A DNA stretch of 64,000 nucleotides, taken from NCBI GenBank assembly GCA_964400275.1, contig CAYNSS010000001.1, positions 558,839-622,838 of the forward strand, read 5' to 3'. Made by a program: the position numbers and the translations under genes. The notes under the pieces are model-generated. The model saw nothing but the letters and a program-made list of their open reading frames with translations, was not told the origin of the DNA and made no database searches. The stretch is from an uncultured Pseudomonadota bacterium. GTDB taxonomy: Bacteria > Babelota > Babeliae > Babelales > Chromulinivoraceae. Of the stretch, positions 5,427-62,637 are shown piece by piece; the first letter of the stretch is position 1, and every line of letters begins with the position of its first letter.

Positions 5427-7886
5427 ATGAATAAATTATTATTATTTGGATTATGTGCGCTTGGCATTATAAGCATACAAACATCAAATCAAGTAATTGA
5501 TAAACCAATTAGAAATTTAATTATTTTTAATGATGTTATCGAGAAAATGCATACATGGGATTTATTGGAAAAAATAGAACCAGAGAGCGCAGCTATTATT
5601 CGTGAATTTATAATTAGTTTGCTTGAAAAGCAGTTAGTACTTGTTACCAAATCATTATGGACTTCATTTCAAAATATTATACAAGCATGGAATAATTATA
5701 AAATGTTATCAGTAGATGAATTAAGAGAAAATTATATTACAGGTCTTAAGAAGGCAGGATTTGAAGATGCAGAAATAGATAAATATGCATTGGCAGATGA
5801 CTATATAAAATCGATGAAAATCGCAATTCTTACAATTGATAAACATTATCAAGCTATACAGAAGAAAATTACTAATAGATCAGAAGTTTTAGAATATTTA
5901 AAAAATATACCAGAAGAAGATAAAATAGAAGAGGTAGCACAACTTTTTGTAGCATATTATATTTATCAAATAATTTTATCGCATGATTACATCTGCAAAG
6001 AAGTAAACAATGAATTTATTATATTTATTCCTAAGGATATAACTTTAGCAAGTGGTAAGGATGAAAAAAAAGATATTTTTTTAGGGTTGTCATATACGAA
6101 ATTAAATGATTTTGACTATGGTACAAAATTATCTGATGATCAGGTTGATAAAATTTTTAATGATGCAAATGATATAATGTATAGTAATGCTTTAGGCCAA
6201 AAACTATTAGATGCATTAAATATCCTTAAAGTTAATAAATCTGATACAAATATATTAAAAAATCCTCAATTGCCATTTTTTAATATATTTATATCTGGGC
6301 ATGGTGATGATGTAATTACTTCAGAAATTTCTATAACTTTATCACAAGATCATAGAATCAAAGAACAGAAATCAGATATGTTACAAATTTTAAAGTTTTT
6401 TAATAATAGTATAAAAACTAAATCTTTAGCATTTGTATCTTGTTATCCAGGAGGCAAAAAATTCGTAGATACTTTTGATATTAAGCATCCACTTTCTAAT
6501 AGAGCATTAGAGTCTATTACATATCCAATTCTTTTTATGGGATCATTTTATGCCGAAACATTTAATACACTTATTTCTGATGCTCCATTTAAAGATTTAG
6601 ATTTTGTAGTATTTAATAATGCATTTTATGCTCCAAAAAGTTTACAAAGTATATTGTTTTGGAATCAATATTTTGATTTTATGAATCAACAACCAGTTGA
6701 GTATAAAAAAGCAGCAGAATTAATCTTTTTTAAAGAAGATACAGGATCAGAAGCTAATTTAGCAAGTTTTAAAAAACCAAATACTGCATGGTTTATACCA
6801 GTTGAATTTGAAAGTAAAAAGGTAGATCAATCATTTTTATCAATTTCTCAAATCTATGCCTTAACTCATGATCAAATTGTAGTTCCATCAAGATTAGATT
6901 TAAAACGTATATGGTTGCAAGCTAATTATGTACATACTATAAAATTTCCAAAAAGATCTTCTGTTCTATATGAATCTAAAGATGATGTATATGAATCTGC
7001 TGATAAGTTTAAAAAAATAAATGCTTTTCCTTATGTTTTTCCAATGAATTATCATAATCAAAATTATATAATTGAAAAAATTGAAGCGCCAGATCTTGTG
7101 CTTAATGATGAAAAATCAGAATTGGATTCTAGTTTGCATCAATTTATAGAAATCTTTTTTCCTGTTTATAAAATAAAAGAGCCTATTAAAATAGTTATTA
7201 AAAAGCTTATTACGAAAAATTATAATTTTAAAAATATATATATTTTTAGATATATTAAAAAGAAAGAGCTTTTTGGTGATCTTGCTACTTCTTTAGATAT
7301 TTCAAATGAAGATGAATATGAAGATGGATATATTTATACAGATACTAAAACAAAAGAAACAAAAATTGTTTTATGGCCTTATGATAAATATCATCCACTT
7401 TTTGAAAAAGAGTACCAAAAAGAGTTTGAAGAATATAAAAAAGAAAAATCAGACCTATCAGAAGAAGAAATAAAAGCATTAATGGATCAAGATGGAAGAG
7501 TTCAATTTAAAGAAGAAAATTTTGATGTATCTAAAAATGAATCATTTATTTCGTCTATAGAAGTACATTTAAAAAATATATTAGAACAATCAGTTGGTTA
7601 TAAAAATATTGAAAAAGCGTTACAAAAGAGCAAACAGGAATTTAAGGTACATAAAAAAGACGATAAAAGAGATTTAAAAGTAGTCAGTAGAGCTTTAGAT
7701 CTTGCACAAGCAGTGATTATCCAAAAAAATAAAAGGAATTTAAAAGTAGTCAGTAGGGCTTTAGATCTTGCACAAGCAGTGACTATGGAAAAAAATAAAA
7801 GAGAAGCAGAATTTTTTTTACAAAAATCAAAAATTGTAGCTCGAACATTAGATCTAGCCTATACGCTTAATAATTCTAACAATTAA
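5427..7886 (+). CDS. large secreted protein, paralog B (candidate clan-CD-like cysteine peptidase fold)
   Basis: Start moved from track ATG 5373 to ATG 5427 (AAAGGAAAG upstream; signal peptide MNKLLLFGLCALGIISIQT). FNIFISGHG (His codon 6300), then 47 aa, then SLAFVSCYPGG (Cys codon 6441). Confidence 0.75.
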   Translation: MNKLLLFGLCALGIISIQTSNQVIDKPIRNLIIFNDVIEKMHTWDLLEKIEPESAAIIREFIISLLEKQLVLVTKSLWTSFQNIIQAWNNYKMLSVDELRENYITGLKKAGFEDAEIDKYALADDYIKSMKIAILTIDKHYQAIQKKITNRSEVLEYLKNIPEEDKIEEVAQLFVAYYIYQIILSHDYICKEVNNEFIIFIPKDITLASGKDEKKDIFLGLSYTKLNDFDYGTKLSDDQVDKIFNDANDIMYSNALGQKLLDALNILKVNKSDTNILKNPQLPFFNIFISGHGDDVITSEISITLSQDHRIKEQKSDMLQILKFFNNSIKTKSLAFVSCYPGGKKFVDTFDIKHPLSNRALESITYPILFMGSFYAETFNTLISDAPFKDLDFVVFNNAFYAPKSLQSILFWNQYFDFMNQQPVEYKKAAELIFFKEDTGSEANLASFKKPNTAWFIPVEFESKKVDQSFLSISQIYALTHDQIVVPSRLDLKRIWLQANYVHTIKFPKRSSVLYESKDDVYESADKFKKINAFPYVFPMNYHNQNYIIEKIEAPDLVLNDEKSELDSSLHQFIEIFFPVYKIKEPIKIVIKKLITKNYNFKNIYIFRYIKKKELFGDLATSLDISNEDEYEDGYIYTDTKTKETKIVLWPYDKYHPLFEKEYQKEFEEYKKEKSDLSEEEIKALMDQDGRVQFKEENFDVSKNESFISSIEVHLKNILEQSVGYKNIEKALQKSKQEFKVHKKDDKRDLKVVSRALDLAQAVIIQKNKRNLKVVSRALDLAQAVTMEKNKREAEFFLQKSKIVARTLDLAYTLNNSNN
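7672..7870 (+). repeat. in-frame 66-nt tandem repeat (2 near-perfect units plus 1 degenerate) at the 3' end of paralog B
   Basis: LKVVSRALDLAQAVIIQKNKRN / LKVVSRALDLAQAVTMEKNKRE / IVARTLDLAYTL. Units start at 7672 and 7738. Confidence 0.85.
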
Positions 7887-20870: not shown

Positions 20871-21051
20871 ATGATCTCCCTTAGTTTGTATATTTTTTAG
20901 TAGCAAACTTTTAATATGTTTTCAAACATAGCAGAGGGTCTATTGAGTTTCAAGATAAAATAAAAAATTATGGTATTTTTATAGAAAGAAGATATTTTTA
21001 ACAAAAAGAATTTTTAAAAAACAAGAAAATGATTTAAAATAAATAACAAAT

Positions 21052-21098
21052 AGATTCTTGCTTTTAAAAGAATCCATTAGATTCTTTGCAAAGAATGC
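21052..21098. promoter_or_regulatory. two adjacent copies of the recurring palindrome AGATTCTT-N-AAGAATSC
   Basis: agattcttgcttttaaaagaatcc (21052..21075) and agattctttgcaaagaatgc (21079..21098), 44-90 nt upstream of GTG 21142. Confidence 0.6.
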
Positions 21099-21141
21099 AT
21101 CTACTCTGAAATTAAAATTTCATAAGATCTAAGGATAAAAA

Positions 21142-22419
21142 GTGATTGTAGCAACAAGATTATGGCGAAATTCTCTAGTATGTTTAACTCTACTAGTGGT
21201 ATTACATACTAATATTATACAAGGTATGGTGTGGGATAACCGATACTTTCCTTGGTTTGATCATCTTTATACGGGAAGTGATAGCCGAAAAAGTAATATA
21301 GATGCACAAGTTTTTTTCTTGAAGGGTGGGGATGCTTTTCGATACCAATCACGGTCTGTAAGAGATGAACAGACTATTTCTATTCCAGAATTGTTTGGTC
21401 AACTTGATTTAGTTCCTGTAGCAAACTCTATCGTTAAATCAGGAAAACCGAATCCATTACCAGATGATTGGCAATGGTTATCTGAAATTAAAGCAGTTAT
21501 GCCATGTTCTTTAGAAGGACAAGGAGGATTGCTTACTATGTATGGTGCTATAGCGCCGCATTTTGGAATTGGTGGTTCAACATTAATTATGAAACTTAAT
21601 AACTTTGTAAATATTTTACCAGCTCCAGAATCTATTGATAAATTAAATCTTAATACACCTGGAAATTTGTCTGTATTTGATCAAACAATGCAAAAAATTT
21701 ATCAAGAAATTGATATGCCTTGTACTTGTTTTCAAGAAGTAGGGGTTGGAGACGTTGTTCTTTATGTAAATATTTATGATGTTCATGAATATAAATATAA
21801 ATTTAGAAAATTAGATTGGGGTGTTTGGCTTGGATGTATTATTCCAAGTGGACTTAAATATAATCCAGCAAATTTAGGTTCAATAGGTTTTGGTAATCAA
21901 TATGGAGGTTGGGGTTGGTTTATTGCTCCCCGTGCTGAATTTGAACTTCGTGATGATTTGAAATTTGGAATCATGGGAAGAATAACACAACGATTTGATA
22001 CTTGCTTTACAGGAAGAATTCCATTGGGCAAAGAACAAAGTTTGTTTGCGCCAATTATAGGATCTGTTGGTGTTGATCAAGGAACTACATTTGGAGTAAC
22101 ATCCTATTTTGTTTTTGAAGATATTCGAGCAGGACTTGGAGTTCAAGTTCAATATACGATTAATCATCATGAAAATGATACCTTTTATGCAAAGGTACCT
22201 GGACTTGATGTAAATCCGAAATTTCGTGATATGGGTTATTATTCTGCTTGGACAGATGAATATTTTAGTATTAAACTATTTTACGATGTTGCTTATGATA
22301 AGTTTTGGAAAATTCGACCAAATGTTTACTTTGCATGGGATTGTCCTATGAATCATTTATTTGGGCGAGGTTTTGGAAGAACAAATAAGATAGCACTTGG
22401 TTGTATGGTTAATTTTTAA
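21142..22419 (+). CDS. putative outer-membrane beta-barrel protein
   Basis: Signal peptide. Alternating aromatic/Gly-rich segments. C-terminal ...LGCMVNF ends in Phe, the OMP sorting signature. Confidence 0.5.
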   Translation: MIVATRLWRNSLVCLTLLVVLHTNIIQGMVWDNRYFPWFDHLYTGSDSRKSNIDAQVFFLKGGDAFRYQSRSVRDEQTISIPELFGQLDLVPVANSIVKSGKPNPLPDDWQWLSEIKAVMPCSLEGQGGLLTMYGAIAPHFGIGGSTLIMKLNNFVNILPAPESIDKLNLNTPGNLSVFDQTMQKIYQEIDMPCTCFQEVGVGDVVLYVNIYDVHEYKYKFRKLDWGVWLGCIIPSGLKYNPANLGSIGFGNQYGGWGWFIAPRAEFELRDDLKFGIMGRITQRFDTCFTGRIPLGKEQSLFAPIIGSVGVDQGTTFGVTSYFVFEDIRAGLGVQVQYTINHHENDTFYAKVPGLDVNPKFRDMGYYSAWTDEYFSIKLFYDVAYDKFWKIRPNVYFAWDCPMNHLFGRGFGRTNKIALGCMVNF

Positions 22420-29851: not shown

Positions 29852-30271
29852 TTAAAAACGTTTTGAAAGGTATTTAATAATATCATCACTTTCAAGCATT
29901 TTTATATTTTTTTCTGCATCATACAAGAACGGGCATTGAGTGTTACCTTTATTTAATGAAAGAAGTTCTTGCATGTTAGTTTTATTGGTAACATCGATAA
30001 TGGTTATTTTATCTAGGTGGTTTTTTGAGCGTAAATAGTTAATAACTTTTTTACAGTATGGACAACTAGGATATATATAGAGTTTTATTTGATTCTTTTC
30101 TGTATTTGATTCTGACTCAAGAGAAGTGGATTTATTTTTCATTATTTCTCCTGTTACGATTTCTTTTTCAGCCGATTGAGATTCTTTTTTGTAAGAATTA
30201 GAACAACTAATAAGCGTTGTTATGCAAATAAACGAAAAAAGATGAAAAATTTTCTTTTGTGAAAAAAACAT
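29852..30271 (-). CDS. glutaredoxin-like lipoprotein (CPYC)
   Basis: Lipobox LISCSN. Glutaredoxin motif YIYPSCPYCKKVINYL. 3-nt gap to the SBP gene. Confidence 0.65.
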   Translation of the reverse strand: MFFSQKKIFHLFSFICITTLISCSNSYKKESQSAEKEIVTGEIMKNKSTSLESESNTEKNQIKLYIYPSCPYCKKVINYLRSKNHLDKITIIDVTNKTNMQELLSLNKGNTQCPFLYDAEKNIKMLESDDIIKYLSKRF

Positions 30272-30348: not shown

Positions 30349-31713
30349 TCAAGAGGGGGTCAAGTGTCCTTTGTATGAGGAATCTTTAACATGCAAATTT
30401 ATTTTTTTCTGTAGTAAGTTTTTTTGTTTTTTTTCAAGTCTGATAAGTCGTTTTATCTCTTTCCATTCATGCTCGGCAATATTCATAGCGCCATATACTT
30501 TTTGATTATAGATTTCTATATTGTAATCGTTTGGCGTATATTCGATGCTATGATGTTGCATGTGTTGACGCAGATCTTTGGTAATAAAAGGGATTATTTT
30601 TTTATAATTACTTTTAATAGTATGATAAGGTCGCATTTCAATTAGGTCAAAATCAGGCTTGAATTCAACAACTAGGTCATGTGGAGCATCTTTATTTTCT
30701 TCTAGAAATTTTGTTACGATTGGCAAAAAGGTAAGAATTGGAAGTGGATAAAAAGGAAATGTTTGGCGGTACGTTAAGATAGTCCATCCCATAAACCATA
30801 GTTCAAAGTGTCCAGGATCATAATTAACCTCTTTAAAATAACGGCTTAAAATTTTTGGATCATTAACAACTTGTTTGTCTTTATATTTTAAGCAAATCGG
30901 TTCATATTTAGTTATTTTTATACGAATTTGATGGAGTTTTTCAGGAACTTTAAAATTATTGCGCTTTGAGAATTTTTTCTTTGAAAAAAATCTTTTAAAA
31001 GAAAAGAAATCAAGGGTTTGCACCCGATCTGCGCGTGAATAAAAGTTAAATACTCTTTTAAATATAGGACTATTGATAAGATAATCAGTTTCAACTTGAA
31101 TTGGCGTGCCAAGTAACCAAAGTTCATCAATGTGAAAATGTTCTTGTTCTGGTTTAGTTTTGTAAATAGCGCCAAGCTGTAATGCAAGGTTGCCTCCATG
31201 GCTATATCCTATAAGTCGAACACGAGGCTTAAAACCTTCTTTTTGGCATCGTTTAAATATTTTTGCAAGATCTTGATATAAAAATGAACCTTCAAGAAAA
31301 CGTAATTTATTACTAATGAGTCCACTCCAACCAAATGTATAGTATTCATCTGTTTTTGGATAACCAGCATTAAGAGAAATTTCTTCAAAAGCAGTAGCAA
31401 GAACAGGAGCAGCAGCATTTTTGTGAAGATCATAGATATCTATTTTGTGAAGTCCAAGGCCAGCCATTGCTTGATTTTTATAAAAGAAAGGATCCCGACG
31501 ATTGATTTCTGTTGACCGATAATAAATAGATTCTTCGATGGTATCATAAAGCATTTTAAAAATATTGCGGATCCCTAAATGAGGTCTTAAAGAAAAAGAT
31601 CCGTGAATAAAAACGGTAATCCATTTTGATGGAAGAGTCGTATTTTCAGCTGCAGTAAGGCTTAAATTTGAACATATTATTATTGCAAGTGTAAGACTAA
31701 TTTTTTTATTCAT
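30349..31713 (-). CDS. secreted alpha/beta-hydrolase (lipase/esterase-like)
   Basis: Signal peptide. VFIHGSF, then nucleophile elbow GYSHGG (GxSxG). Confidence 0.65.
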   Translation of the reverse strand: MNKKISLTLAIIICSNLSLTAAENTTLPSKWITVFIHGSFSLRPHLGIRNIFKMLYDTIEESIYYRSTEINRRDPFFYKNQAMAGLGLHKIDIYDLHKNAAAPVLATAFEEISLNAGYPKTDEYYTFGWSGLISNKLRFLEGSFLYQDLAKIFKRCQKEGFKPRVRLIGYSHGGNLALQLGAIYKTKPEQEHFHIDELWLLGTPIQVETDYLINSPIFKRVFNFYSRADRVQTLDFFSFKRFFSKKKFSKRNNFKVPEKLHQIRIKITKYEPICLKYKDKQVVNDPKILSRYFKEVNYDPGHFELWFMGWTILTYRQTFPFYPLPILTFLPIVTKFLEENKDAPHDLVVEFKPDFDLIEMRPYHTIKSNYKKIIPFITKDLRQHMQHHSIEYTPNDYNIEIYNQKVYGAMNIAEHEWKEIKRLIRLEKKQKNLLQKKINLHVKDSSYKGHLTPS

Positions 31714-31734: not shown

Positions 31735-31754
31735 AGATTCTTTTTTAAGAATCC
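31735..31754. promoter_or_regulatory. recurring palindrome AGATTCTTTTTTAAGAATCC
   Basis: 22-41 nt upstream of the lipase-like start (31713). 20-mer identical to 52722..52741. Confidence 0.6.
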
Positions 31755-31878
31755 AATAAATCTTTTGTACTTGTTGTTTACTATAGTCATAGTTTTTTTC
31801 TAAGCCAATGGATTATCTATTTTTAATTAAAAAAAGTCTTTATAATACCAAAAATCACATTTTACCTTTGAAATTAAT

Positions 31879-33974: not shown

Positions 33975-34688
33975 TTATTCAATTTCTAGCTGAATAAAAA
34001 ATGCAGCATCTAAAGTTACAAATGATCCTGGTTTAGGCTTTTGATTAACGATGATCATTTCTTTTAGAAATGGTGGATGGATTATTTCTGAAGATTCAAA
34101 AATCTTATAATTTATTTGCTGTTGTTCTAGTTTGTTGATAACTAAATTAATATTTTTCCCTATAAAATTCGGCATAATATATAGATTAGGTTTTTGTTGT
34201 GCTGTGTATATTATTATTTTTTTATCAGAGAGAATAGTATCCTTTTCTGGTATTTGACCGATGCAAGTATCTATGCCTAGTGGGTAAATCAAAGGATAAT
34301 TTTTGAGTTGAATATCATGTTCCTTTGCTATTTTAATACAATTTTTAAGAGGTAGTAATTTTAGATCAGGAGCTTTTGCAGGTTGATTTTCTTTAGCTAT
34401 AGTAATTAATATTGTTTGATTTTGTTTAATAAGTCTGCCAGAGCTAGGCTTTTGAGAGATTATGATTCCAGGTTCTACGCCTGGAGCTTCTTGTTCACAT
34501 AGTAATTTTATAGTGGCATGATTTTTTGCAGCAAGATTTAATGCATGAGGCAATCGAAGGCCTATAAGGTTTGGTGTTTGATACAATCCAGAACCTATTA
34601 AAAAATAGGATAGTATGTATCCAAGCATAAAAAGAATAAAAGGCATTAAGGCTAAGAATAAAAAAAACTTATTTTTCATTAGATCCAA
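33975..34688 (-). CDS. membrane-anchored protein with three PASTA domains
   Basis: N-terminal TM helix, then three ~65-aa units of PASTA type (e.g. PNLIGLRLPHALNLAAKNHATIKL...PGIIISQKPSSGRLIKQNQTILITI). No kinase or transpeptidase domain. Confidence 0.7.
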   Translation of the reverse strand: MDLMKNKFFLFLALMPFILFMLGYILSYFLIGSGLYQTPNLIGLRLPHALNLAAKNHATIKLLCEQEAPGVEPGIIISQKPSSGRLIKQNQTILITIAKENQPAKAPDLKLLPLKNCIKIAKEHDIQLKNYPLIYPLGIDTCIGQIPEKDTILSDKKIIIYTAQQKPNLYIMPNFIGKNINLVINKLEQQQINYKIFESSEIIHPPFLKEMIIVNQKPKPGSFVTLDAAFFIQLEIE

Positions 34689-34739
34689 AGTATTAGGTCA
34701 TATTGATTTTAGACTGTTTGAAATCTCAGATGTTATATT

Positions 34740-35108
34740 AAGGGCAGATAATAAGCCGGATTCTGTTAATTGGCGTAAAGCCAATTTGGCAATTATTTAT
34801 CTATGCGACATACCCGCAAGTAAGAGTTCAAGCGCTCAGCTTGCTTACTTTGTCTTGCTCCTGAAGGGGTTTACCCTATACATAAATTGCTCTATGTACA
34901 CGTGTGCTCTTACCACACATTTTCACCCTTACTTATACTATTCATATAAGCGGTTATTTTCTGTGGCACTTTCCGTCATAAACAGACTCGCAAGAATCTA
35001 TTTATGCCCTGCATTGAGTTACCTCTCTGCAGGCATCATGCTTGAATGGAGTCCGGACTTTCCTCATAAAATTTTTTCAAATTTTACGCAATTGCCTAAT
35101 CTGCCCAA
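34740..35108 (-). ncRNA. rnpB: RNase P RNA (bacterial type)
   Basis: The minus strand reads GGGCAGAUUAGGC...GAGGAAAGUCCGGACUCC...GGAAAGUGCCACAGAAA...GUAAGGGUGAAAAUGUGUGGUAAGAGCACAC...GGGUAAACCCCUUCAGGAGCAAG...ACAGAAUCCGGCUUAUUAUCUGCCC. P1 (GGGCAGAU/AUCUGCCC) and both P4 strands are present. It replaces the spurious track ORF 34615..35142. Confidence 0.95.
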
Positions 35109-35327
35109 TTTTTATTCAAAGTATAAAAAAAGTTTATCATAGAGGTTTATAAATAGCAAAGCCTCGAGCTTTTCTTTGAAAATTAGTTTATAAAAAAAGA
35201 TAAGCTTTGAGTCTTTTCTCATTTGACAGATAGAAATAGTTTGGTATCATTATTTCCAATAATAAGGTATTTTGAGATAGATATTGAAGTAAAAAAATAA
35301 CAAAACCGTTTATACACAAGGATGTAT

Positions 35328-35651
35328 ATGAAAAAAATGTTTTTAGCGCTTGCTTTATTAGCAGTAGCTCCAATTTTTGCAGAAGAACCTACAGTTGAAT
35401 CTAAAGGTATTGTTGCAAAAGCAAAAGAAGCAGTTTCAGGTGCAGCATCTTCTGTTGCTGGCTATTATAGCAATGCAGCAGGCTCAGTTGATAACTTTGT
35501 TGCTAATTGGACGCCAAGCTTCGTTTCAACTCCTGTTTCAGCAGTTGTTGATGCAGCTAGAAACAACGTAAAAGTTGCTATGGCTCTTGTAGCAGTTGCT
35601 ACATATGCAGTTGTAAAAACATCAGAATCTTCAGTTGAAGCTGAATTGTAG
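35328..35651 (+). CDS. small secreted Ala/Ser/Val-rich protein
   Basis: AAGGA RBS 5 nt before ATG 35328. Signal peptide MKKMFLALALLAVAPIFA. Strong terminator downstream. Confidence 0.6.
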   Translation: MKKMFLALALLAVAPIFAEEPTVESKGIVAKAKEAVSGAASSVAGYYSNAAGSVDNFVANWTPSFVSTPVSAVVDAARNNVKVAMALVAVATYAVVKTSESSVEAEL

Positions 35652-49026: not shown

Positions 49027-49497
49027 CTATGAATTTAATAATCCAGCAACAATGAAAACTATTCCCATACCAATTAATAAATCACTGGCAGCTTTTGGAT
49101 TATATTTTAAATGTGGATAGCGTTCATAGATGGCATCTTGTAATTCTCGTTCTGCTTGAATAATTACATATCTTGATTCGTTGCGATATTTTAATCGAGC
49201 AAGTTTAGCTTTTAATTTTGCAATGCGTGCTTCTTGGTATGCAATCTCGGCTTCTTTTTCTTTTTGATAGACATTGTAAGAGCTTGAATAATATGAGCTA
49301 TTGTATGTAGGGTTATAGTAATATCTATCATGATAATCATGGTAGCTGTAATCGTAATCATAGTCATCATAATCATCATAATCATAGGTGGTATCGTCAA
49401 GGTCATTATAATGATAAGAAAAACGAACATTGAAATCAGTGTTAGTTATACTAGAAATTGTCAGCAAAAATAATGCTATTAATGATAAATTTTTCAT
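49027..49497 (-). CDS. secreted, C-terminally anchored protein with an Asp/Tyr-rich low-complexity region
   Basis: Signal peptide. YHYNDLDDTTYDYDDYDDYDYDYSYHDYHDRYYYNPTYNSSYYSSSYNVY. Coiled-coil-like KEKEAEIAYQEARIAKLKAKLARLK. C-terminal TM LLIGMGIVFIVAGLL. Confidence 0.6.
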   Translation of the reverse strand: MKNLSLIALFLLTISSITNTDFNVRFSYHYNDLDDTTYDYDDYDDYDYDYSYHDYHDRYYYNPTYNSSYYSSSYNVYQKEKEAEIAYQEARIAKLKAKLARLKYRNESRYVIIQAERELQDAIYERYPHLKYNPKAASDLLIGMGIVFIVAGLLNS

Positions 49498-49509
49498 TTT
49501 TATATCCTT

Positions 49510-49530
49510 GGATTCTTTATATAAGAATCT
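49510..49530. promoter_or_regulatory. recurring palindrome GGATTCTTTATATAAGAATCT
   Basis: 13-33 nt upstream of the start of 49027..49497 (-). Confidence 0.55.
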
Positions 49531-49664
49531 ATTTATAGGGTTGCTTGAAAAATATCTTTATCTTATTTTTAGGGTATCAAAGAATATTAATTTGGCAAAT
49601 TTGAACTTTTGTGGATTGTATTTCTAGTGTATTTTTTTGTATTAAATTAAAGTTTGTTATTAAG

Positions 49665-49697
49665 AAAAAAGCCTGCATTTTAGAGCAGGCTTTTTTT
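49665..49697. terminator. bidirectional terminator (serves the cysK-like gene on the minus strand)
   Basis: aaaaaagcctgc / gcaggctttttt stem with flanking A and T runs. Confidence 0.75.
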
Positions 49698-50700: not shown

Positions 50701-51645
50701 TTAAAATAGAAGCATTACAATTGCAACCAAGAGTCCATAAATTGCAAATGAGTCAATCATTGCAAGAGCAAGAAGTGCAATTTTTGAAAGATTAGAATAT
50801 TGTTCAAGGTTTAATCCAATTTGTTTGCAGGCAGCAGCACCAGTTTTTCCAGCGTTAATACTTGTGGCAATGGTGCTTAGTCCCATACAAAGTGCAGCAC
50901 TGATAAATTTCCAGCCTTGTACTGGGGCATCAGGAATAATAGTTGCTGATAAAATCATTAAAGATATTAGTAATGCAAATATTGCAGGAGTTTCAATAAT
51001 TGCTTCACAGATAAATGTGAAGGAAATAATTTTATTAAATGCTTTTTTGTTAACACCTACGGCAGTACATGCTGCAGCAGCAAAAATACTAAGACCTATA
51101 GAGGGTCCGATTGATCCGATCCCAATACTTAGTCCGCTCGAAAAAAGTTGAAGAGCTTGATTAAGATTTTGAATATTAGGCATTTTGTTTTTGATCATTA
51201 AAGACACAAGCATTCCAAACATATTAGGTGTCATAATCAATGTTTGGACAATAAGCATCAAGTTTAAAAATTTAGTATACATAAATGGTTGATGCGTCAG
51301 GCTATGACACATTTTAGCAGCAGGGATAGATGCTGCAATTCCAGCACAAAGACCAGAAATACCAAGTGCAATCATAATTCCTGCAATAGCAAGATCAGAA
51401 AAACTGGAATGTGTAATGGTATTTGTTTCATTGAGTAAAAGAATTGAAAGAACTAGTCCCATGATAGAAGCTGTTTCTACAATAGCCATACCAATAATAC
51501 ATAGCTTTGAAATCGAATTGGAAGCGGAAGGTTGTCGGTTTAAACTTTCCATGGCATTTTTTCCAATAATGCCTTGTCCAATGCTTGTGCCAATTGATGA
51601 AAGTATTGCAGGAATAGTTGAAAAAATAATATATAAAGTATTCAT
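50701..51645 (-). CDS. atpE: F-type ATP synthase c subunit, four hairpins fused in one 314-aa polypeptide
   Basis: Four ~80-aa repeats, each with a Gly/Ala-rich helix 1 and a helix 2 carrying the ion-site position: E57, Q134, E218, D298. Hairpin 1 keeps the RQP loop. Lies directly downstream of atpB. Confidence 0.8.
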   Translation of the reverse strand: MNTLYIIFSTIPAILSSIGTSIGQGIIGKNAMESLNRQPSASNSISKLCIIGMAIVETASIMGLVLSILLLNETNTITHSSFSDLAIAGIMIALGISGLCAGIAASIPAAKMCHSLTHQPFMYTKFLNLMLIVQTLIMTPNMFGMLVSLMIKNKMPNIQNLNQALQLFSSGLSIGIGSIGPSIGLSIFAAAACTAVGVNKKAFNKIISFTFICEAIIETPAIFALLISLMILSATIIPDAPVQGWKFISAALCMGLSTIATSINAGKTGAAACKQIGLNLEQYSNLSKIALLALAMIDSFAIYGLLVAIVMLLF

Positions 51646-51651
51646 AGTTTT

Positions 51652-52425
51652 TTATGATTGAGCTATTGATTTTTCTTTTTCTTCTTTTTCTTCTGACTCA
51701 TCTTCTGGAGCAACTTCCATTGATAAATAGGTTAATGTTAGCATCGTAAATACAAAAGCCTGAATAAGACCTTCGGCAAATCCAAATATTAAAAGTATTA
51801 TAAAGTTTGCACCAGTTATAAGACCTAATGTTTGACTGATTGCTGATCCTGAAATAGCACTTGAGTATAGAGAACTAATAATAAATCCACCAAAAATATT
51901 TCCAAAAAGACGAAATGATAAAGATATTATAGATGAAATTGCACCTATAACATGTAGTGGAAACATTAAAAAGAATGGTTCAAAATAATGTTTGATATAA
52001 TGCCATAATCCATTGGTTCTAATTGAAGTTCCATGAACAAATAAAAATGAAATTAGTCCTAAAGCAAGTGTCGTGTTTAAATCCTTAGTAGGTTCTTCCA
52101 GCCATGGAATAAATTGGATGGTATTGCACATCAAAATGAAGGTAAAAATAGATCCAATCATAGCAAGATTTGCAATAGAGCAAACTTTAAGTGATTGTTG
52201 AATTAAATCGCGAAAAGATTGAACGTATTGAAGCACAATAAATCGAACTAGGCTAGAATCATTTTTAAGGCAGCGGGAAATATACCAAGAGCTTATAAAA
52301 ATAATTCCAAGAATTACCCAAGTGCTGATGAGAGTATCAGCTTGTAAGTTCCAAAATTTGTGAGTGAAACCTAATGATTCAAATGGTTTCCAATTATGTT
52401 CATGTGTCATACCTTGGTTATGCAT
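51652..52425 (-). CDS. atpB: F-type ATP synthase a subunit
   Basis: LSFRLFGNIFGG with the essential stator Arg. 5-6 TM helices. Acidic C-terminal tail EDESEEKEEKEK. Confidence 0.88.
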   Translation of the reverse strand: MHNQGMTHEHNWKPFESLGFTHKFWNLQADTLISTWVILGIIFISSWYISRCLKNDSSLVRFIVLQYVQSFRDLIQQSLKVCSIANLAMIGSIFTFILMCNTIQFIPWLEEPTKDLNTTLALGLISFLFVHGTSIRTNGLWHYIKHYFEPFFLMFPLHVIGAISSIISLSFRLFGNIFGGFIISSLYSSAISGSAISQTLGLITGANFIILLIFGFAEGLIQAFVFTMLTLTYLSMEVAPEDESEEKEEKEKSIAQS

Positions 52426-52442: not shown

Positions 52443-52694
52443 TTAGTTTTTATACGTTACAATTGCAATCGTGCTTAGGTATGATGATACAAATAAAGTC
52501 ATCAGAAGTATAGGGTTGATTGTAATAAATTTTATAATATAGAAAAAAACGCATATAAGAAGTAAGAATCTTAATCCATTAAATAAGAAATCAAGAAAAA
52601 TATTATGATTCATTAAAAGATATTTTTTTCCCGTGATAAAGAGCGCTGCGTATAAGATTCCTAAAAAAATTATACTGAGTATCGAAATAAACAT
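52443..52694 (-). CDS. small membrane protein in the AtpI/AtpZ position
   Basis: 83 aa with 2-3 TM helices, immediately upstream of atpB. Call rests on position only. Confidence 0.4.
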   Translation of the reverse strand: MFISILSIIFLGILYAALFITGKKYLLMNHNIFLDFLFNGLRFLLLICVFFYIIKFITINPILLMTLFVSSYLSTIAIVTYKN

Positions 52695-52721
52695 AAAACA
52701 ACTTATTTTTTTTGATTTAAG

Positions 52722-52741
52722 AGATTCTTTTTTAAGAATCC
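52722..52741. promoter_or_regulatory. recurring palindrome AGATTCTTTTTTAAGAATCC
   Basis: 28-47 nt upstream of the start of the atp mini-operon (52694). Identical 20-mer to 31735..31754. Confidence 0.6.
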
Positions 52742-55149: not shown

Positions 55150-56889
55150 TTAAAATAAGAAGTTGATAGATCCCATGAGTGTTACTGGATAGTAAGCATT
55201 TCGTGGAGCTATTGGTTGTTGCCATAAGAATGAAAGTTGTAGCCCTGGCATAATGTCAAAAACCATTGCAGCGTTAAAGAACTGTGCACGCCAGTCTGAT
55301 CTGCAGGTTAAGACTTCAGGGGTGTAATACTGTGCCTTTGAGGCATCTTTGAAAGAATAGCAATCTCTTGTGTGTTCGATGAGTTCATAAGTAAACCAGA
55401 AGCTAACATGTTTTAAGAATTGGTAGGCATGCAAGAGGGCTTTGAATTCCCAGTTCATGCCGGGTTTTGATGTTACTGTTGCTTCAAATGGGTAAAGTAT
55501 TCTTTGAAGTTGATGAGTTGGGAATGGGCGAGTTTGTACATGAGGAATAAAATAAGTGACTCCACCTTCAAAGCCGACTTCAACAGATTCTGCAAAATCA
55601 AAAGTAAATCCAAGTCCTCCACCCACAGAACCATGTCCATCGTTTCCAAAAGGAAGGGCCAAGATATTGCGATAGTTAGTTTCTTTTGCTATAGGAACTG
55701 ATCCACCAATCCATGTATAAGGAGTGAAAATAGTATCAGGCCATGACCCTGGATCATCATCTTCGTCGTGGCGCGCTCTGAAAGGTTCATAGCTTTTGCT
55801 TAATGTTAAAAGTAAGCGTAGATCATCTACGCTGAAACGATCAAAATTACAAATTGGATTATTATTATCAATACAGTCAGGATTTAAAACAGCAGCAATG
55901 TTATTTGAAATATATTGATTGAATATACTTTGGGCAGTAGCGCTAGCAGTAGAGTTTGAAGAATTGGATTGATTGAGTTGTGCACCATATAAATTAGTAA
56001 CTGTATTACTTGTTCCCAGTACCGCTGAAATAGGATAAGGGCCATAATTTGTTTGGCCACTAGGAGTTGCGCTTGATCCTGTAGTTAATGTATTTACATA
56101 GTATTGTCGCATGTTAGTAAAGCCAGTTTGAATAGTAAGGCCTATATTATCATGTGGTTGAATATTCAACTCGAAGCGTGCTCCAACTTGTTGGTATTCG
56201 ATAGGAAGTGAAAACGCACCAAAGTAGATAGTGTCTTCCGCAAGTTTTCGTGGACTAAAAATACTAAAACTTTCGAATATAGTCTGAGTAGTTTGTGGTA
56301 CTTGTCCATTAGTAAAAAAAATTAAAGGATTTCCGGTAGCAGTAGTTGTACAGTTAGCGGTTCCTGCATTACCAATTAATCCTAAGGCTATATTGCTTAA
56401 GCATGGAGGAAGATCAAATGCTTCAACAGACTCAGGTGTTATATAATTACATGGATCAGTATCAGGATAAGGCTCATTTGTTGTAGGGTCTATGTTTACA
56501 ATAGTTTTTCCGTTTTTAGGATTATGCCCAAGGAATAGACCCATGGCGTATAAAGTTCCTCTAAAGTCGCCCATTTCAAATGCGTTTGGAGCAGAACCGA
56601 CGACGGTACCGTAGCTTGTACTGCCTGTGTATCCACGAGCTTGCACAGCTTTTTGGAAGAATCCGCTCATATTAAAACCAAACCAACGTCGTTTGCTTGG
56701 TTGCTCTTCTTTGATGCGCGCATGCTGAAGAGTGATAAATTGGCTGTTGGGTGGCATCATGCTGTCGTTTGCACTGTAATTTGGTGCAGGATCAAAGTGT
56801 CTTAATGTCGTCAATTTAGCATCAAGAATAGTGCTAAAAAGAAGACAGATGTTGACTCCATAAATGAATTTAACAAATAACTGTTTCAT
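55150..56889 (-). CDS. putative outer-membrane beta-barrel protein
   Basis: Signal peptide. Ser/Thr/Asn-rich surface-loop-like region. C-terminal ...MGSINFLF ends in Phe. Confidence 0.5.
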   Translation of the reverse strand: MKQLFVKFIYGVNICLLFSTILDAKLTTLRHFDPAPNYSANDSMMPPNSQFITLQHARIKEEQPSKRRWFGFNMSGFFQKAVQARGYTGSTSYGTVVGSAPNAFEMGDFRGTLYAMGLFLGHNPKNGKTIVNIDPTTNEPYPDTDPCNYITPESVEAFDLPPCLSNIALGLIGNAGTANCTTTATGNPLIFFTNGQVPQTTQTIFESFSIFSPRKLAEDTIYFGAFSLPIEYQQVGARFELNIQPHDNIGLTIQTGFTNMRQYYVNTLTTGSSATPSGQTNYGPYPISAVLGTSNTVTNLYGAQLNQSNSSNSTASATAQSIFNQYISNNIAAVLNPDCIDNNNPICNFDRFSVDDLRLLLTLSKSYEPFRARHDEDDDPGSWPDTIFTPYTWIGGSVPIAKETNYRNILALPFGNDGHGSVGGGLGFTFDFAESVEVGFEGGVTYFIPHVQTRPFPTHQLQRILYPFEATVTSKPGMNWEFKALLHAYQFLKHVSFWFTYELIEHTRDCYSFKDASKAQYYTPEVLTCRSDWRAQFFNAAMVFDIMPGLQLSFLWQQPIAPRNAYYPVTLMGSINFLF

Positions 56890-56915
56890 AAAATTCTACC
56901 TTTTTTGATTCAAGT

Positions 56916-56935
56916 AGATTCCTCTTAAAGAATCC
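56916..56935. promoter_or_regulatory. recurring palindrome AGATTCCTCTTAAAGAATCC
   Basis: 27-46 nt upstream of start 56889. The adjacent GATTCAAGTAGATT 14-mer also occurs at 2611..2624, upstream of paralog A. Confidence 0.55.
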
Positions 56936-58262: not shown

Positions 58263-58568
58263 CATGGGGTCATTTTAGAATATGTTTGGAATTTAACCAT
58301 ATAAAAAATAAAGATTATGAACTATTCAATTTATTATCAAGCACGCGTTCAAAAAGAACTTTGCTGGTTTGTTACATCAAGTATTCGTTTTTGCGAGCAT
58401 GTTGCTTTTGATCGTACCGTAGAAAAAGAAGAAAGTATTTTTGAATTCTTTGTAGCTCCTGACATGGAAGCTGAATTTTTAGATGTTGCTCACAAACTTC
58501 TTGCGCGCGGTGTATTTTTAGATTTACAAAAATTACCAAATAGATTAATTGATAGTGATATAGTTTAA
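58263..58568 (+). repeat. direct repeat copy 1 (~306 bp) containing the 83-aa gene
   Basis: Identical to 61505..61809 except one extra G (58263..58276 catggggtcatttt vs catgggtcatttt) and one A/G substitution. Confidence 0.95.
58317..58568 (+). CDS. hypothetical 83-aa protein, copy 1
   Basis: MNYSIYYQARVQKELCWFVTSSIRFCEHVAFDRT... Duplicated at 61558..61809 with a single R/K difference. Confidence 0.6.
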   Translation: MNYSIYYQARVQKELCWFVTSSIRFCEHVAFDRTVEKEESIFEFFVAPDMEAEFLDVAHKLLARGVFLDLQKLPNRLIDSDIV

Positions 58569-58611: not shown

Positions 58612-60633
58612 ATGCTGAAGAAAATTATTTTGTTTAGTAGCGTAATTTTTTTAGAAAATGAATTATATTCAGCTGCAAAAGCAGCAGCTGCAGAACATCA
58701 TTTAGTTTTTGATAGAAATTTATACGAAAAGCTTAAAAAGTTTTATGATGAAATTTCAGAGAATAATATTGCCGAATTATCAAATAGATACTCTATATCA
58801 GAAGACATAGCGCAATTACTTTCTTTTCATAAAAAATACATAAATCAACCTATTGAGGAAAAAGGAGCAAAGCCTCTTTTGCTAGCAGTTTACAAAGGTG
58901 ATTTAGAAGTTATTCAATTATTGCTTGATCGTGGCGCTGATATTAATAAAGCTGTAAATGATGGAACAAGTCCACTTTTAATAGCAGCTGCGGGGGGTCG
59001 TGAAAAAGTGGTTGAATTATTGCTTAAGCGTGGTGCTGATAAAAATCAAGCAAATAATAATGGAGCAAGTCCACTTTGTGCAGCCGCTGAATATGGCCAT
59101 GAAAAAGTCGTTCAATTGTTGCTTGATCATGGTGCTGCAATTAATAAAGCAACGCATGATGGATCAACGCCAGTTTATATCGCAGCCTTCAAGGGTCATG
59201 AAAAAGTGGTTGAATTATTGCTTAATCGTGGTGCTGATAAAAATCAAGCAAATAATAATGGAATAACGCCACTTTTTGCAGCAGCTCAATATGGTCATGA
59301 AAAAGTGGTTGAATTATTGGTTAATGCTAGAGGTATTGAAATTAATAAATCAAACAATGGTAATGAAACACCACTTTATATCGCAGCCGTCAAGGGTCAT
59401 GAAAAAGTGGTTGAATTATTAGTTAATCATGGTGCTGATAAAAATCAAGCAAATAACAATGGAGTAACGCCACTTTATGCAGCAGCTGAAAATGGCCATG
59501 AAAAAATTGTTCAATTGTTGCTTGATCGTGGTGCTGAAATTAATAAAGCGGCAGTTGATGGAGCAACGCCACTTTATATAGCAACATTCAGGCGTCATAT
59601 AAATATTCTTAAACTATTACTTGGCGCTGGTGCCAATAAAGATCAAGCAACTAATGATGGAGCAACGCCATTTTATCTAGCTGCTGAAAAAGGCTACGAC
59701 GAGATTGTTGAATTGTTACTTAAGCATGGCGCTGATGCCAATAAGGCAAAAAATAATAATGCAACGCCACTTTTGGTAGCAGCTGAAAATGGCCATGAAA
59801 AAATTGTTCAATTGTTGCTTGATCGTGGTGCTGAAATTAATAAAGCAGCAAATGATGGAGCAACGCCACTTTATGCAGCAGTTGAAAATGGTCATGAAAA
59901 AGTTGTTCAATTGTTGCTTCATGTTCATGATATCGAAATTAATAAAGCTGCAAATGATGGAACAAATCCACTTTTACTAGCAGCTGCGATGGGTCATGAA
60001 AAAGTGGTTGAATTATTGCTTAATCGTGGTGCTGATAAAAATAAAGCAAATAAAGATGGAATAACGCCACTTTATGCAGCAGCTAAATATGGTCATGAAA
60101 AAGTTGTTGAAATGTTAGCTAATGCTAGTGGTATTGAAATTAATAAAGCGACGGGTGATGGAATAACTCCTCTTTGTACAGCAGTTGAAGAAGGCCATGA
60201 AAAAGTTGTTCAAGTATTGGTTAATGCTAGAGGTATTGAAATTAATAAATCAAATAATGAGCAAGAAACACCACTTTATATAGCAGCTCAAGAAGGCTAT
60301 GAAGAAATTGTTCATCTATTACTTCAAAAAAACGCTGATCCTAACAAAGCAAGAAAAGATAATTCAACACCACTTTTTGTAGCATCTTTCATGGGGAATA
60401 AAAATATTGTCAAATTATTGCTTGATCATGGCGCTGATAAAAACAAAGCAAAAAATGATGGAGCAACGCCACTTTATATAGCAGCTCAAGAACGTCATGC
60501 AGAAATTGTTAAATTATTGCTTGATTATGGCGCTGATAAAAATAAAGCAAATAATGATGGGCACACACCACGTTATATAGCATTGGCAAAACACTACGAC
60601 GATATAATTGAATTATTGCCTCAGGGTGCTTAA
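58612..60633 (+). CDS. ankyrin-repeat protein (17-18 repeats) with N-terminal signal-like segment
   Basis: 33-aa periodic G.TPL..AA..GH.KVV.LLL..GAD.NKA consensus repeated from about aa 86 to the C-terminus. Several 99-nt units are nearly identical at DNA level. Confidence 0.92.
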   Translation: MLKKIILFSSVIFLENELYSAAKAAAAEHHLVFDRNLYEKLKKFYDEISENNIAELSNRYSISEDIAQLLSFHKKYINQPIEEKGAKPLLLAVYKGDLEVIQLLLDRGADINKAVNDGTSPLLIAAAGGREKVVELLLKRGADKNQANNNGASPLCAAAEYGHEKVVQLLLDHGAAINKATHDGSTPVYIAAFKGHEKVVELLLNRGADKNQANNNGITPLFAAAQYGHEKVVELLVNARGIEINKSNNGNETPLYIAAVKGHEKVVELLVNHGADKNQANNNGVTPLYAAAENGHEKIVQLLLDRGAEINKAAVDGATPLYIATFRRHINILKLLLGAGANKDQATNDGATPFYLAAEKGYDEIVELLLKHGADANKAKNNNATPLLVAAENGHEKIVQLLLDRGAEINKAANDGATPLYAAVENGHEKVVQLLLHVHDIEINKAANDGTNPLLLAAAMGHEKVVELLLNRGADKNKANKDGITPLYAAAKYGHEKVVEMLANASGIEINKATGDGITPLCTAVEEGHEKVVQVLVNARGIEINKSNNEQETPLYIAAQEGYEEIVHLLLQKNADPNKARKDNSTPLFVASFMGNKNIVKLLLDHGADKNKAKNDGATPLYIAAQERHAEIVKLLLDYGADKNKANNDGHTPRYIALAKHYDDIIELLPQGA

Positions 60634-60713: not shown

Positions 60714-61541
60714 TTATTTTTTAATATTTTCGATACGTTCAAAAAATTCTTTATTTCCTAAATCTGTAAATAGATCTTGCAGTTGCATACCTTTAGCAGA
60801 ACCGGTTAGAAATATTCGAATTGAAGCAAACAAGATTTTGTTTTCAATTCCGGCAGACGCTGCTTGTGCTTTGACCGCATTCATGAAGTTATTCCAGTCA
60901 TCATGTTTGCATGCAAGCAATATTTCTTTAATTTTTATAAATGTTTCCTGATCTGCAACATCACTATAAATTTTTGTATCAATCGTTGGTCTTACAAAGT
61001 AGAATTTCAAAAGTTCAGTAACTTGTGCAAGTGTTTGCATATCTGTTTGAACAGTTTTAATTAATTTTGTAAGAGTTTGGTCAGATACTGATGCAATGTT
61101 GTATTGATTTGCTAAAAATGGTTTACACAGTTCTGTTAGTTTCTCAAGATTATAGCTTACAATCCATTTATGATTTATCCATTTTAATTTTTCAATATCG
61201 TATTTGATTTGACTTGCGCCGTGTAGGTTGTCGAACTTATAGTTTTTTGCAAGAACATCCAATGACATGATTTCTTGTTCAAATGAGCAGCCTAAAATTC
61301 CTAAGTAGTTGCAAATTGCTTCAGGTAAATATCCTTGAGCTTCCACATCTTCAAGTGAAAATCCACGATCACGTTTAGAAAGTTTTTTGTCTTCTTGGTT
61401 ACACAATGTAGGTAAATGCCAAAATATAGGCAGTGGATATTCCAGAGCGTTATACAGCACAGTTTGGCTTACTGTATTTGATAGATGTTCCTCACCGCGG
61501 AAAACATGGGTCATTTTAGAATATGTTTGGAATTTAACCAT
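60714..61541 (-). CDS. truncated glutamyl-tRNA synthetase paralog (KMSKS loop plus anticodon-binding half only)
   Basis: 275-aa intact ORF. From MTHVFRGEEHL onward it is collinear with full gltX (offset 1916 nt). It lacks the HIGH/Rossmann N-terminal half, and the first 9 aa come from unrelated sequence. Confidence 0.6.
   Translation of the reverse strand: MVKFQTYSKMTHVFRGEEHLSNTVSQTVLYNALEYPLPIFWHLPTLCNQEDKKLSKRDRGFSLEDVEAQGYLPEAICNYLGILGCSFEQEIMSLDVLAKNYKFDNLHGASQIKYDIEKLKWINHKWIVSYNLEKLTELCKPFLANQYNIASVSDQTLTKLIKTVQTDMQTLAQVTELLKFYFVRPTIDTKIYSDVADQETFIKIKEILLACKHDDWNNFMNAVKAQAASAGIENKILFASIRIFLTGSAKGMQLQDLFTDLGNKEFFERIENIKK
60976..61517. repeat. 542-bp ~99%-identical block shared with 62892..63433
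   Basis: Only a handful of substitutions by eye (e.g. PTLCNQEDKK vs PILCNQEGKK), while the adjacent 3' block 60714..60975 is much more diverged from 62636..62891. Confidence 0.9.
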
Positions 61542-61809
61542 ATAAAAAATAAAGATTATGAACTATTCAATTTATTATCAAGCACGCGTTCAAAAAGAAC
61601 TTTGCTGGTTTGTTACATCAAGTATTCGTTTTTGCGAGCATGTTGCTTTTGATCGTACCGTAGAAAAAGAAGAAAGTATTTTTGAATTCTTTGTAGCTCC
61701 TGACATGGAAGCTGAATTTTTAGATGTTGCTCACAAACTTCTTGCGCGCGGTGTATTTTTAGATTTACAAAAATTACCAAATAAATTAATTGATAGTGAT
61801 ATAGTTTAA
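61505..61809 (+). repeat. direct repeat copy 2 (~305 bp) containing the 83-aa gene
   Basis: See 58263..58568. The left edge abuts the truncated gltX at gggtcatttt|agaatatg. Confidence 0.95.
61558..61809 (+). CDS. hypothetical 83-aa protein, copy 2
   Basis: Identical to 58317..58568 apart from K76 instead of R76. Confidence 0.6.
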   Translation: MNYSIYYQARVQKELCWFVTSSIRFCEHVAFDRTVEKEESIFEFFVAPDMEAEFLDVAHKLLARGVFLDLQKLPNKLIDSDIV

Positions 61810-62605: not shown

Positions 62606-62637
62606 AAAGGCGTCTTTAACAGACGCCTTTTAATTTT
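62606..62637. terminator. bidirectional terminator between convergent genes
   Basis: aaaggcgtct / agacgccttt stem, followed by TAATTTT. Confidence 0.8.

Follow-up and report, generated by a model that had tools for sequence, protein, structure and literature searches.

REPs are extragenic, imperfectly palindromic sequences of ~20 nt (PMC3337134). The repeat described here resembles the RAYT-mobilised REPs and REPINs of Enterobacteria, Pseudomonas and Stenotrophomonas in being a short (~20-nt), imperfect and extragenic palindrome that is dispersed and lineage-specific (PMC3337134). It also shares with them a constant stem beside a variable loop, occurrence in both orientations, and local duplication, insertion and decay. 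Several features set it apart: the stem is A/T-rich, with 2 G-C pairs per hairpin; copies are single or in direct tandem (21052-21098, with the same AG..CC polarity) rather than in inverted doublets or BIME-like clusters; there is no invariant 5' tetranucleotide; and no RAYT gene is present among the called genes (~147 kb) of the genomes that carry the hairpin. Whereas REPs lie after genes, every known copy of this hairpin is in a 5' leader, no more than 49 nt from the start codon.

The other close comparison is the stabiliser in the 5' UTR of E. coli ompA, which depends on its stem and not on its loop (Emory et al. 1992; Arnold et al. 1998; both cited in PMC7509114). What links the element to the ompA stem-loop is a hairpin that precedes the ribosome-binding site within the untranslated leader of mRNAs for outer-membrane proteins and other products (PMC7509114). 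The ompA stabiliser occurs once, as the extreme 5' end of a single mRNA; by comparison, the hairpin here recurs in six leaders, arrived in them by insertion, and lies at a predicted distance from the transcription start that varies from ~+5 to +24.

The element falls between REP-like dispersed palindromes and leader stem-loops, both of which are well-known kinds. The Correia elements of Neisseria, enterobacterial ERIC/IRU and pneumococcal BOX/RUP are likewise insertion-derived repeats with regulatory hairpins; they are co-transcribed with their neighbours and can alter mRNA processing or stability. These elements are at least 100-150 bp long and have terminal inverted repeats and target-site duplications, whereas the element here consists of nothing but a 20-24-nt hairpin and shows no clear target duplication. 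The palindromic operators of dimeric repressors, such as those of LexA, Fur, CRP/FNR and HrcA-CIRCE, share with it inverted repeats, a conserved half-site sequence and a position near promoters. Their half-site spacing is fixed throughout the regulon, and related genera conserve them along with the regulator; here, the spacing runs from 3 to 8 bp, and sister lineages with the same promoters have no hairpin.

The window, the whole 64-kb stretch of DNA analysed here, belongs to the genome of an uncultured member of the Dependentiae (TM6)/Babeliales, referred to as W. The exact proteins of the window also occur in a Logan assembly (SRR12404947). Dependentiae live inside other cells and are uncultured or difficult to culture, and next to nothing is known of their gene control. 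Searches of the literature found no earlier description of such a hairpin for this phylum.

Copies of the hairpin and their positions

A palindromic hairpin repeat, real and non-random, recurs in the window. The pattern GATTCYT-N4-10-ARGAATC has five exact matches in the 64 kb, against 0.02 expected from dinucleotide-preserving shuffles, and all copies are intergenic. This upholds the proposal, made in an earlier note on this DNA, of a shared cis-element standing before start codons, and the six copies counted there are all confirmed at their coordinates.

The first two copies share the leader of gene 21142-22419, which encodes an OMP-like protein of 425 aa. Hairpin 1a (21052-21075, plus strand; AGATTCTT-GCTTTTAA-AAGAATCC) begins 12 nt past a putative promoter-like block, TTTAAA-16-TAAAAT (21013-21040, plus strand), which is upstream of both copies; hairpin 1b (21079-21098, plus strand; AGATTCTT-TGCA-AAGAATGC) is a direct tandem second copy with one mismatch (GAATGC). 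The remaining copies in the window are on the minus strand. Hairpin 2 (31735-31754; sense GGATTCTT-AAAA-AAGAATCT) stands 21 nt before the gene for a lipase-like secreted protein (30349-31713) and downstream of a second putative promoter-like block, TTGGCT-17-TATAGT (31780-31808, minus strand), which is kept in relative B and in L002 and L003. Hairpin 3 (49510-49530; sense AGATTCTT-ATATA-AAGAATCC) lies 12 nt before gene 49027-49497, the product of which is a small, 156-aa, secreted Asp/Tyr-rich protein, and directly adjoins an AAGGA Shine-Dalgarno sequence. Hairpin 4 (52722-52741; sense GGATTCTT-AAAA-AAGAATCT) is 27 nt before an 83-aa membrane ORF (52443-52694), the first of a unit that continues with atp subunit a and a fused c subunit. 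Hairpin 5 (56916-56935; sense GGATTCTT-TAAG-AGGAATCT, with one U.G wobble) is 26 nt before the gene for an OMP-like protein of 579 aa (55150-56889). A sixth locus, before bamA, lies just past the right end of the window (L049); hairpin 6 reads GGATTCTT-CAATA-GGGAATCC in the window genome. With six loci in the ~78 kb of this genome that was examined, out of a 704-kb contig, the density is ~1 locus per 13 kb; REPs number tens to hundreds per genome.

The 7-bp core of the hairpin, GATTCTT/AAGAATC, is a perfect palindrome, and the outermost position alone differs by orientation (G.U vs A.C). It is the sole G/C-containing 7-bp stem that recurs at more than one locus of the window, the G+C content of which is ~31%. 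The copies at 31735 and 52722 are an identical 20-mer with a common CCAATA flank, and the AG..CC ends of the hairpin are found in both orientations relative to the downstream gene; all of this had been read correctly before. Scored with a covariance model built from 16 hairpin copies, those in the window reach 23-42 bits, and the rest of the window stays at or below 16.5 bits.

Allowing up to one mismatch in the pattern gives seven matches in the window, namely the six copies and 30180-30199 (minus strand). The latter is inside a lipoprotein coding sequence (29852-30271; SNSYKKES), has one mismatch and scores 15.8 bits; because of the coding location and the poor score it was taken as a chance match and not counted. 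Eight single matches to the exact 20-mer in JGI metagenomes were rejected as well, being unrelated chance matches in mostly coding contexts.

Placement is also non-random. Non-coding DNA makes up ~10% of the window, and five out of five loci are intergenic (p ~1e-5). The gaps between hairpin and start codon at these loci are 43, 21, 12, 27 and 26 nt, in agreement with the earlier description of all copies as intergenic and shortly upstream of start codons. With the bamA site included, the probability that all lie within 49 nt of the start is 0.005 under uniform placement in their own intergenic regions. Every known copy, whether among the six of the window, at bamA or in orthologous loci, is intergenic, and 3' or convergent regions have none.

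The promoter-like blocks of sites 1 and 2, both upstream of the hairpin, are kept in distant orthologues, in relatives down to ~50% protein identity. Promoter predictions put the hairpin at ~+5 (site 1) and ~+19 (site 2), and weaker ones at ~+14 (site 3) and ~+24 (bamA); sigma-70-like matches are no commoner than in shuffles of this AT-rich DNA, and these promoter calls are predictions. Judged from the predicted, conserved promoter-like blocks, the hairpin is most likely transcribed within the 5' leader.

A hairpin in this position might also end transcription, as an attenuator or terminator, or serve as a 3' protective hairpin of the upstream gene. Hairpin 5 begins only 11 nt past the stop codon of an amino-acid permease gene, and some copies are followed by U-rich stretches, such as GUUUUAUU at the bamA site. 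The stems nevertheless have only 2 G-C pairs and no consistent U-tract, in place of the G+C-rich stem and U-tract of an intrinsic terminator, and the terminator scan calls none of the copies. Genuine G+C-rich terminators occur nearby, among them the canonical terminator of a neighbouring upstream gene at 49664-49697, downstream of which hairpin 3 is placed. At three of the six sites, moreover, the intergenic region is divergent, and the strand of the hairpin has no gene upstream. A role in termination or 3' protection is thus very improbable.

Two further features of the leaders are recorded here. At site 1, a third possible stem (21068-21086) joins the right arm of 1a to the left arm of 1b (AAGAATCC-ATTA-GATTCTT), and this stem appears in the centroid fold of the leader. 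The leaders of sites 1, 4 and 5 share (TA)CTTRAATCAAAA(A) just 3' of the hairpin (21099-21122, 52700-52721 and 56895-56915, sense strand). Outgroups without the hairpin have it too, so (TA)CTTRAATCAAAA(A) belongs to the ancestral leader; it may act as a signal of its own or be the preferred context for insertion.

Relatives, outgroups and insertion

Two close relatives have the hairpin at orthologous positions: B (JGI 3300013121, contig Ga0172278_1356, loci L043 and L044) and C (JGI 3300037311, loci L032 and L045), with 4-fold-site divergence from W of 0.33-0.41 and 0.13-0.18, respectively. At site 1, the two tandem copies of W correspond to one copy in C and one decayed copy in B (AGATTTTT...AATAATTC). 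Hairpin 1b is present in the window genome only, which points to a lineage-specific tandem duplication; the element has both duplicated (W site 1) and decayed (B site 1). At site 2, the hairpin is intact in W and has one inserted C in B. The arms of site 3 are kept, with loops ATATA (W), AGTAT (C) and AATTTC (B); the loops of site 4 are AAAA in W, AAAA in C, where one arm has changed, and AAAAAA in B. At site 5, on the sense strand, GGATTCTT-TAAG-AGGAATCT of W is matched by a copy with loop AAAAA in C and by TGATTCTT-TTAAAAA-AAGAATCT in B. The bamA hairpin of site 6, found in both W and B, reads GGGTTCTT-TTA-AAGAATCT in the latter. Arm spacings of 3, 4, 5, 6, 7 and 8 nt occur across the copies, and the spacing varies between orthologues: among those of W, C and B, in that order, it is 4, 5 and 7 nt at site 5, and 4, 4 and 6 nt at site 4. 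Relative C also carries an extra insertion of ~117 nt upstream of the OMP-like gene (L032 ~6690-6810), absent from W and B, with a 9-bp palindrome of its own (TGATGAATA...TATTCATCA).

At four of the six sites, an orthologous region without the hairpin could be recovered; in all four, both flanks are kept around an empty site. Site 1 is empty in L033 and L002, which read ...aaataa(g/a)tatca|ATCTACTC... against ...aacaatt[AGATTCTTCATTGAAAGAATCC]ATCTACTC... in C, and site 5 is empty in outgroup D (L050), which reads ...gtaagatt|tgaatcaaaaaag... where W has ...ataaaatt[tGGATTCTTTAAGAGGAATCTACT]tgaatcaaaaaag.... At site 6, D is without ~20 nt. At site 2, L002 and L003 keep the promoter-like CCATTGG..N17-18..TATAGT/TATAAT, followed by leaders that are at least ~22 nt shorter and have no hairpin.

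Beyond these sites, 30 orthologous loci from other Dependentiae (543 kb) contain no exact copy, and their three one-mismatch look-alikes equal the background rate. With the covariance model, additional diverged copies turn up neither in the window nor in 651 kb of related loci; its one outside match (L026, 23.6 bits) is inside a coding region of a distant genome. A scan of other Dependentiae lineages for recurrent hairpin stems found none, and no Rfam model matches across any hairpin site, whether gathering scores are applied or E is allowed to reach 5. Because the outgroup sites are empty with their flanks kept, and because no exact copy occurs in the 543 kb, the hairpin is a lineage-specific insertion of ~20-24 nt. 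Among the sequences compared, it is confined to one genus-level Dependentiae lineage, and it is not a conserved Dependentiae regulon signal.

An insertion of this kind could be a REP- or MITE-like selfish palindrome, copied into intergenic DNA by a hairpin-recognising enzyme (a RAYT/IS200-type HUH transposase acting on single-stranded DNA) and devoid of host function; the leader position would then reflect target preference or tolerance. Much of the pattern is what such a repeat would leave behind: clean insertions relative to outgroups at four of the four hairpin-free sites recovered, a tandem duplication at site 1 of the window, presence/absence variation, a decayed copy, both orientations, restriction to one lineage, and the constant stem with variable loops that is typical of REPs. 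The flanks fit less well. In a common orientation they read ATAG (three copies), TTAG, GTAG, GAGA, ACAG and ACGG. GTAG is the defining REP flanking motif, but the flanks examined here have neither a conserved tetranucleotide of that type nor a clear target-site duplication. Inverted doublets, the REPIN form, are also missing, and the Pfam assignments of the called genes in ~147 kb of W, B and C include neither Y1_Tnp, the Y1/HUH transposase family, nor any other transposase family. In addition, all copies are near a start codon (p = 0.005) and none is 3' or convergent, and the arms have changed three times more slowly than 4-fold sites, with loops at the neutral rate, which is unexpected for junk DNA. 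A repeat with no host function is the main rival reading but unlikely. Arrival by insertion does not, however, preclude a host function acquired later, and a REP-like origin is compatible with a present function as an RNA hairpin.

Constraint on the arms and the choice between DNA and RNA

Constraint was measured between W and B over the six independent sites, with 4-fold degenerate sites taken from three neighbouring genes. The arms have 12 changes in 97 positions (divergence 0.12), the loops 14 in 36 (0.39) and the 4-fold sites 144 in 399 (0.36). The arms diverge three times more slowly than the 4-fold sites (Fisher test, 2.6e-6) and differ likewise from the loops (1.2e-3), which change at an approximately neutral rate. 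These figures indicate that the hairpin arms are under purifying selection, with both the sequence and the length of the loop free. For 5'-terminal stabilisers, in which the stem rather than the loop is required and loss of the stem shortens mRNA half-life, such figures are an evolutionary proxy.

The 30 nt on either side of the hairpin are about as conserved as the arms (0.08-0.10), so that some of the conservation of the arms may come from a constraint on the region as a whole. As the distal parts of the same spacers are far more divergent than these flanks, the arms seem to be part of a constrained promoter-proximal or leader block in which the loop alone evolves freely. The constraint is not universal, given the decayed copy at site 1 of B.

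The earlier note had read the element as a symmetric DNA site for a dimeric regulator. In this reading, a transcription factor would bind the duplex near or just downstream of +1, repress or activate these promoters and so control an envelope regulon. The palindromic half-sites, the conserved sequence without covariation and the position near promoter-like hexamers all suit an operator. The spacing of the half-sites does not. It runs from 3 to 8 bp, orthologues included, which corresponds to a rotation of up to ~170 degrees between half-sites; because the spacing varies even between orthologues, the geometry of a dimeric operator is disfavoured, and a stem-loop is indifferent to the length of its loop. 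Variable arm spacing is the strongest discriminator between a DNA site and an RNA hairpin. The note had also argued for DNA from the occurrence of both orientations, an argument that fails, since a perfectly palindromic 7-bp core yields one and the same RNA stem whichever strand is transcribed. Two further points count against an operator: the element is downstream of the conserved promoter-like blocks at sites 1 and 2, and it is inserted DNA, absent from outgroups that have the same genes and promoters. A duplex operator is accordingly improbable. Constrained arms combined with free spacing fit a selected stem-loop, not a dimeric operator of fixed spacing. That the stem sequence is the same at all loci could mean that the copies share a recent origin, or that the sequence is specifically recognised as DNA.

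The substitutions themselves bear on the active form. Each of the six internal single-base changes in retained copies is a transition that gives a G.U-type wobble on one strand, which is the sense strand for five and the antisense strand for one. As a seventh event, the inserted C at site 2 of B pairs as G.U on the antisense strand. The resulting bias of 5:2 sense:antisense is not significant (p = 0.23), and there are no compensatory (double) changes in 128 pair cells, and hence no covariation support for RNA structure. Summed folding energies are near-equal on the two strands (sense -90, antisense -86 kcal/mol). As RNA, each hairpin folds at ~-5 to -7 kcal/mol, and none sequesters the Shine-Dalgarno sequence. 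Because compensatory changes are absent and the wobble bias is not significant, the choice of RNA over DNA as the active form is an inference from indirect evidence.

Each arm also contains one GANTC site, as GATTC or GAATC, and GANTC is the target of the CcrM/M.HinfI methyltransferases. The hairpin could in principle be a methylation-dependent switch. The window, however, has 77 GATTC and 58 GAATC, against ~61 of each estimated from base composition, so the site is neither avoided nor rare; 12 of the GANTC sites of the window are in hairpins and the others are outside them. The conserved arms reach well past GANTC, and no methyltransferase is seen in the window. Such a switch is scarcely credible.

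Downstream genes and the proposed role of the hairpin

All of the products encoded downstream of the hairpins are exported or membrane proteins. This part of the earlier claim holds, and an operator controlling envelope genes would be expected to give the same picture. The regulon built upon it is unsupported, because 26 of 37 transcription-unit first genes (~70%), and 38 of all 61 window genes, are exported or membrane by the same crude criterion of signal-peptide and transmembrane hydrophobicity. On this background the enrichment among hairpin targets (5 of 5) is not significant (p = 0.17), which counts against an envelope operator. Envelope genes of the window that have no hairpin include those for a penicillin-binding protein, MurG, ZnuA, an amidase and a prepilin peptidase. 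Also unfavourable to an operator, the window ORFs scanned include no recognised DNA-binding regulator; no RNA-binding protein and no transposase was recognised among them either.

Several of the downstream genes are of interest in themselves. The two OMP-like genes, 21142-22419 (plus strand) and 55150-56889 (minus strand), encode conserved, Dependentiae-only, putative outer-membrane proteins without a Pfam domain. Database searches gave 45 homologous protein clusters for the first, with names that refer to Candidatus Dependentiae or Babeliales, and 71 for the second; any relationship between the two proteins is very remote (BLASTP E = 0.01). In every relative for which gene order is listed, mreB comes next after the 425-aa OMP-like gene. 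The ATP synthase c-subunit gene (50701-51645, minus strand) encodes 314 aa with four PF00137 stretches, and is thus a four-fold fused c subunit. It comes after subunit a (51652-52425) and the 83-aa membrane ORF (52443-52694) and is followed by a gene for a PLP-dependent enzyme, with no other F-ATPase subunit genes adjacent. The 314-aa fused gene is also present in B and C.

Taken as a whole, the comparisons suggest a repeat that was inserted into 5' leaders in the common ancestor of W, B and C and is now kept as a post-transcriptional leader stem-loop, an account in which we place about even confidence. A short dispersed palindromic repeat of ~20-24 nt would have spread by insertion within one genus-level Dependentiae lineage, settling between promoter and ribosome-binding site in six or more transcription units, and would then have been retained as a stem-loop in the leader. 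Once transcribed, the leader is predicted to form a 7-8-bp A/U-rich hairpin that ends 0-35 nt before the Shine-Dalgarno sequence. The hairpin would act post-transcriptionally, most likely by shielding the mRNA from decay that depends on the 5' end, insulating the ribosome-binding site, or both. This role as mRNA stabiliser or insulator is proposed by analogy with leader stem-loops such as that of ompA. The hairpin may also offer a common handle for a trans-acting RNA-binding factor.

A more elaborate form of post-transcriptional control would be a mobile RNA operator, in which an RNA-binding protein or small RNA recognises the invariant GAUUCUU/AAGAAUC stem and self-copying of the element has wired a new post-transcriptional regulon. 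The known part of the regulon would comprise major outer-membrane proteins, BamA, a secreted lipase-like protein and the ATP synthase membrane sector, in a reduced-genome intracellular bacterium with few classical regulators. We consider this doubtful. If the hairpin is recognised by a trans-acting factor, the phylum would have its first defined post-transcriptional regulon; if there is no such factor, the element would be one more lineage-specific REP-like repeat. As a leader stem-loop of inserted origin, the hairpin would be a small, concrete case of regulatory sequence arising from repeat insertion into the leaders of several highly conserved surface-protein genes.

Elsewhere in the window, a class A bacterial RNase P RNA (34737-35107, minus strand, 220 bits) occupies the 633-nt spacer between genes 33975-34688 and 35322-35651, and the ORF that overlaps it (34615-35142, plus strand) is probably spurious. 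Towards the right end, a segment of 300 nt that comprises most of an 83-aa gene is duplicated at 100% identity (58267-58566 and 61508-61807), and a 3' fragment of gltX is repeated at ~77% identity (60714-61541 and 62636-63991). Both repeats bracket a gene for a 673-aa ankyrin-repeat protein (58612-60633) that is absent from this position in B and D; the arrangement suggests that an ankyrin effector-like gene was inserted recently and that the target region was duplicated with it.
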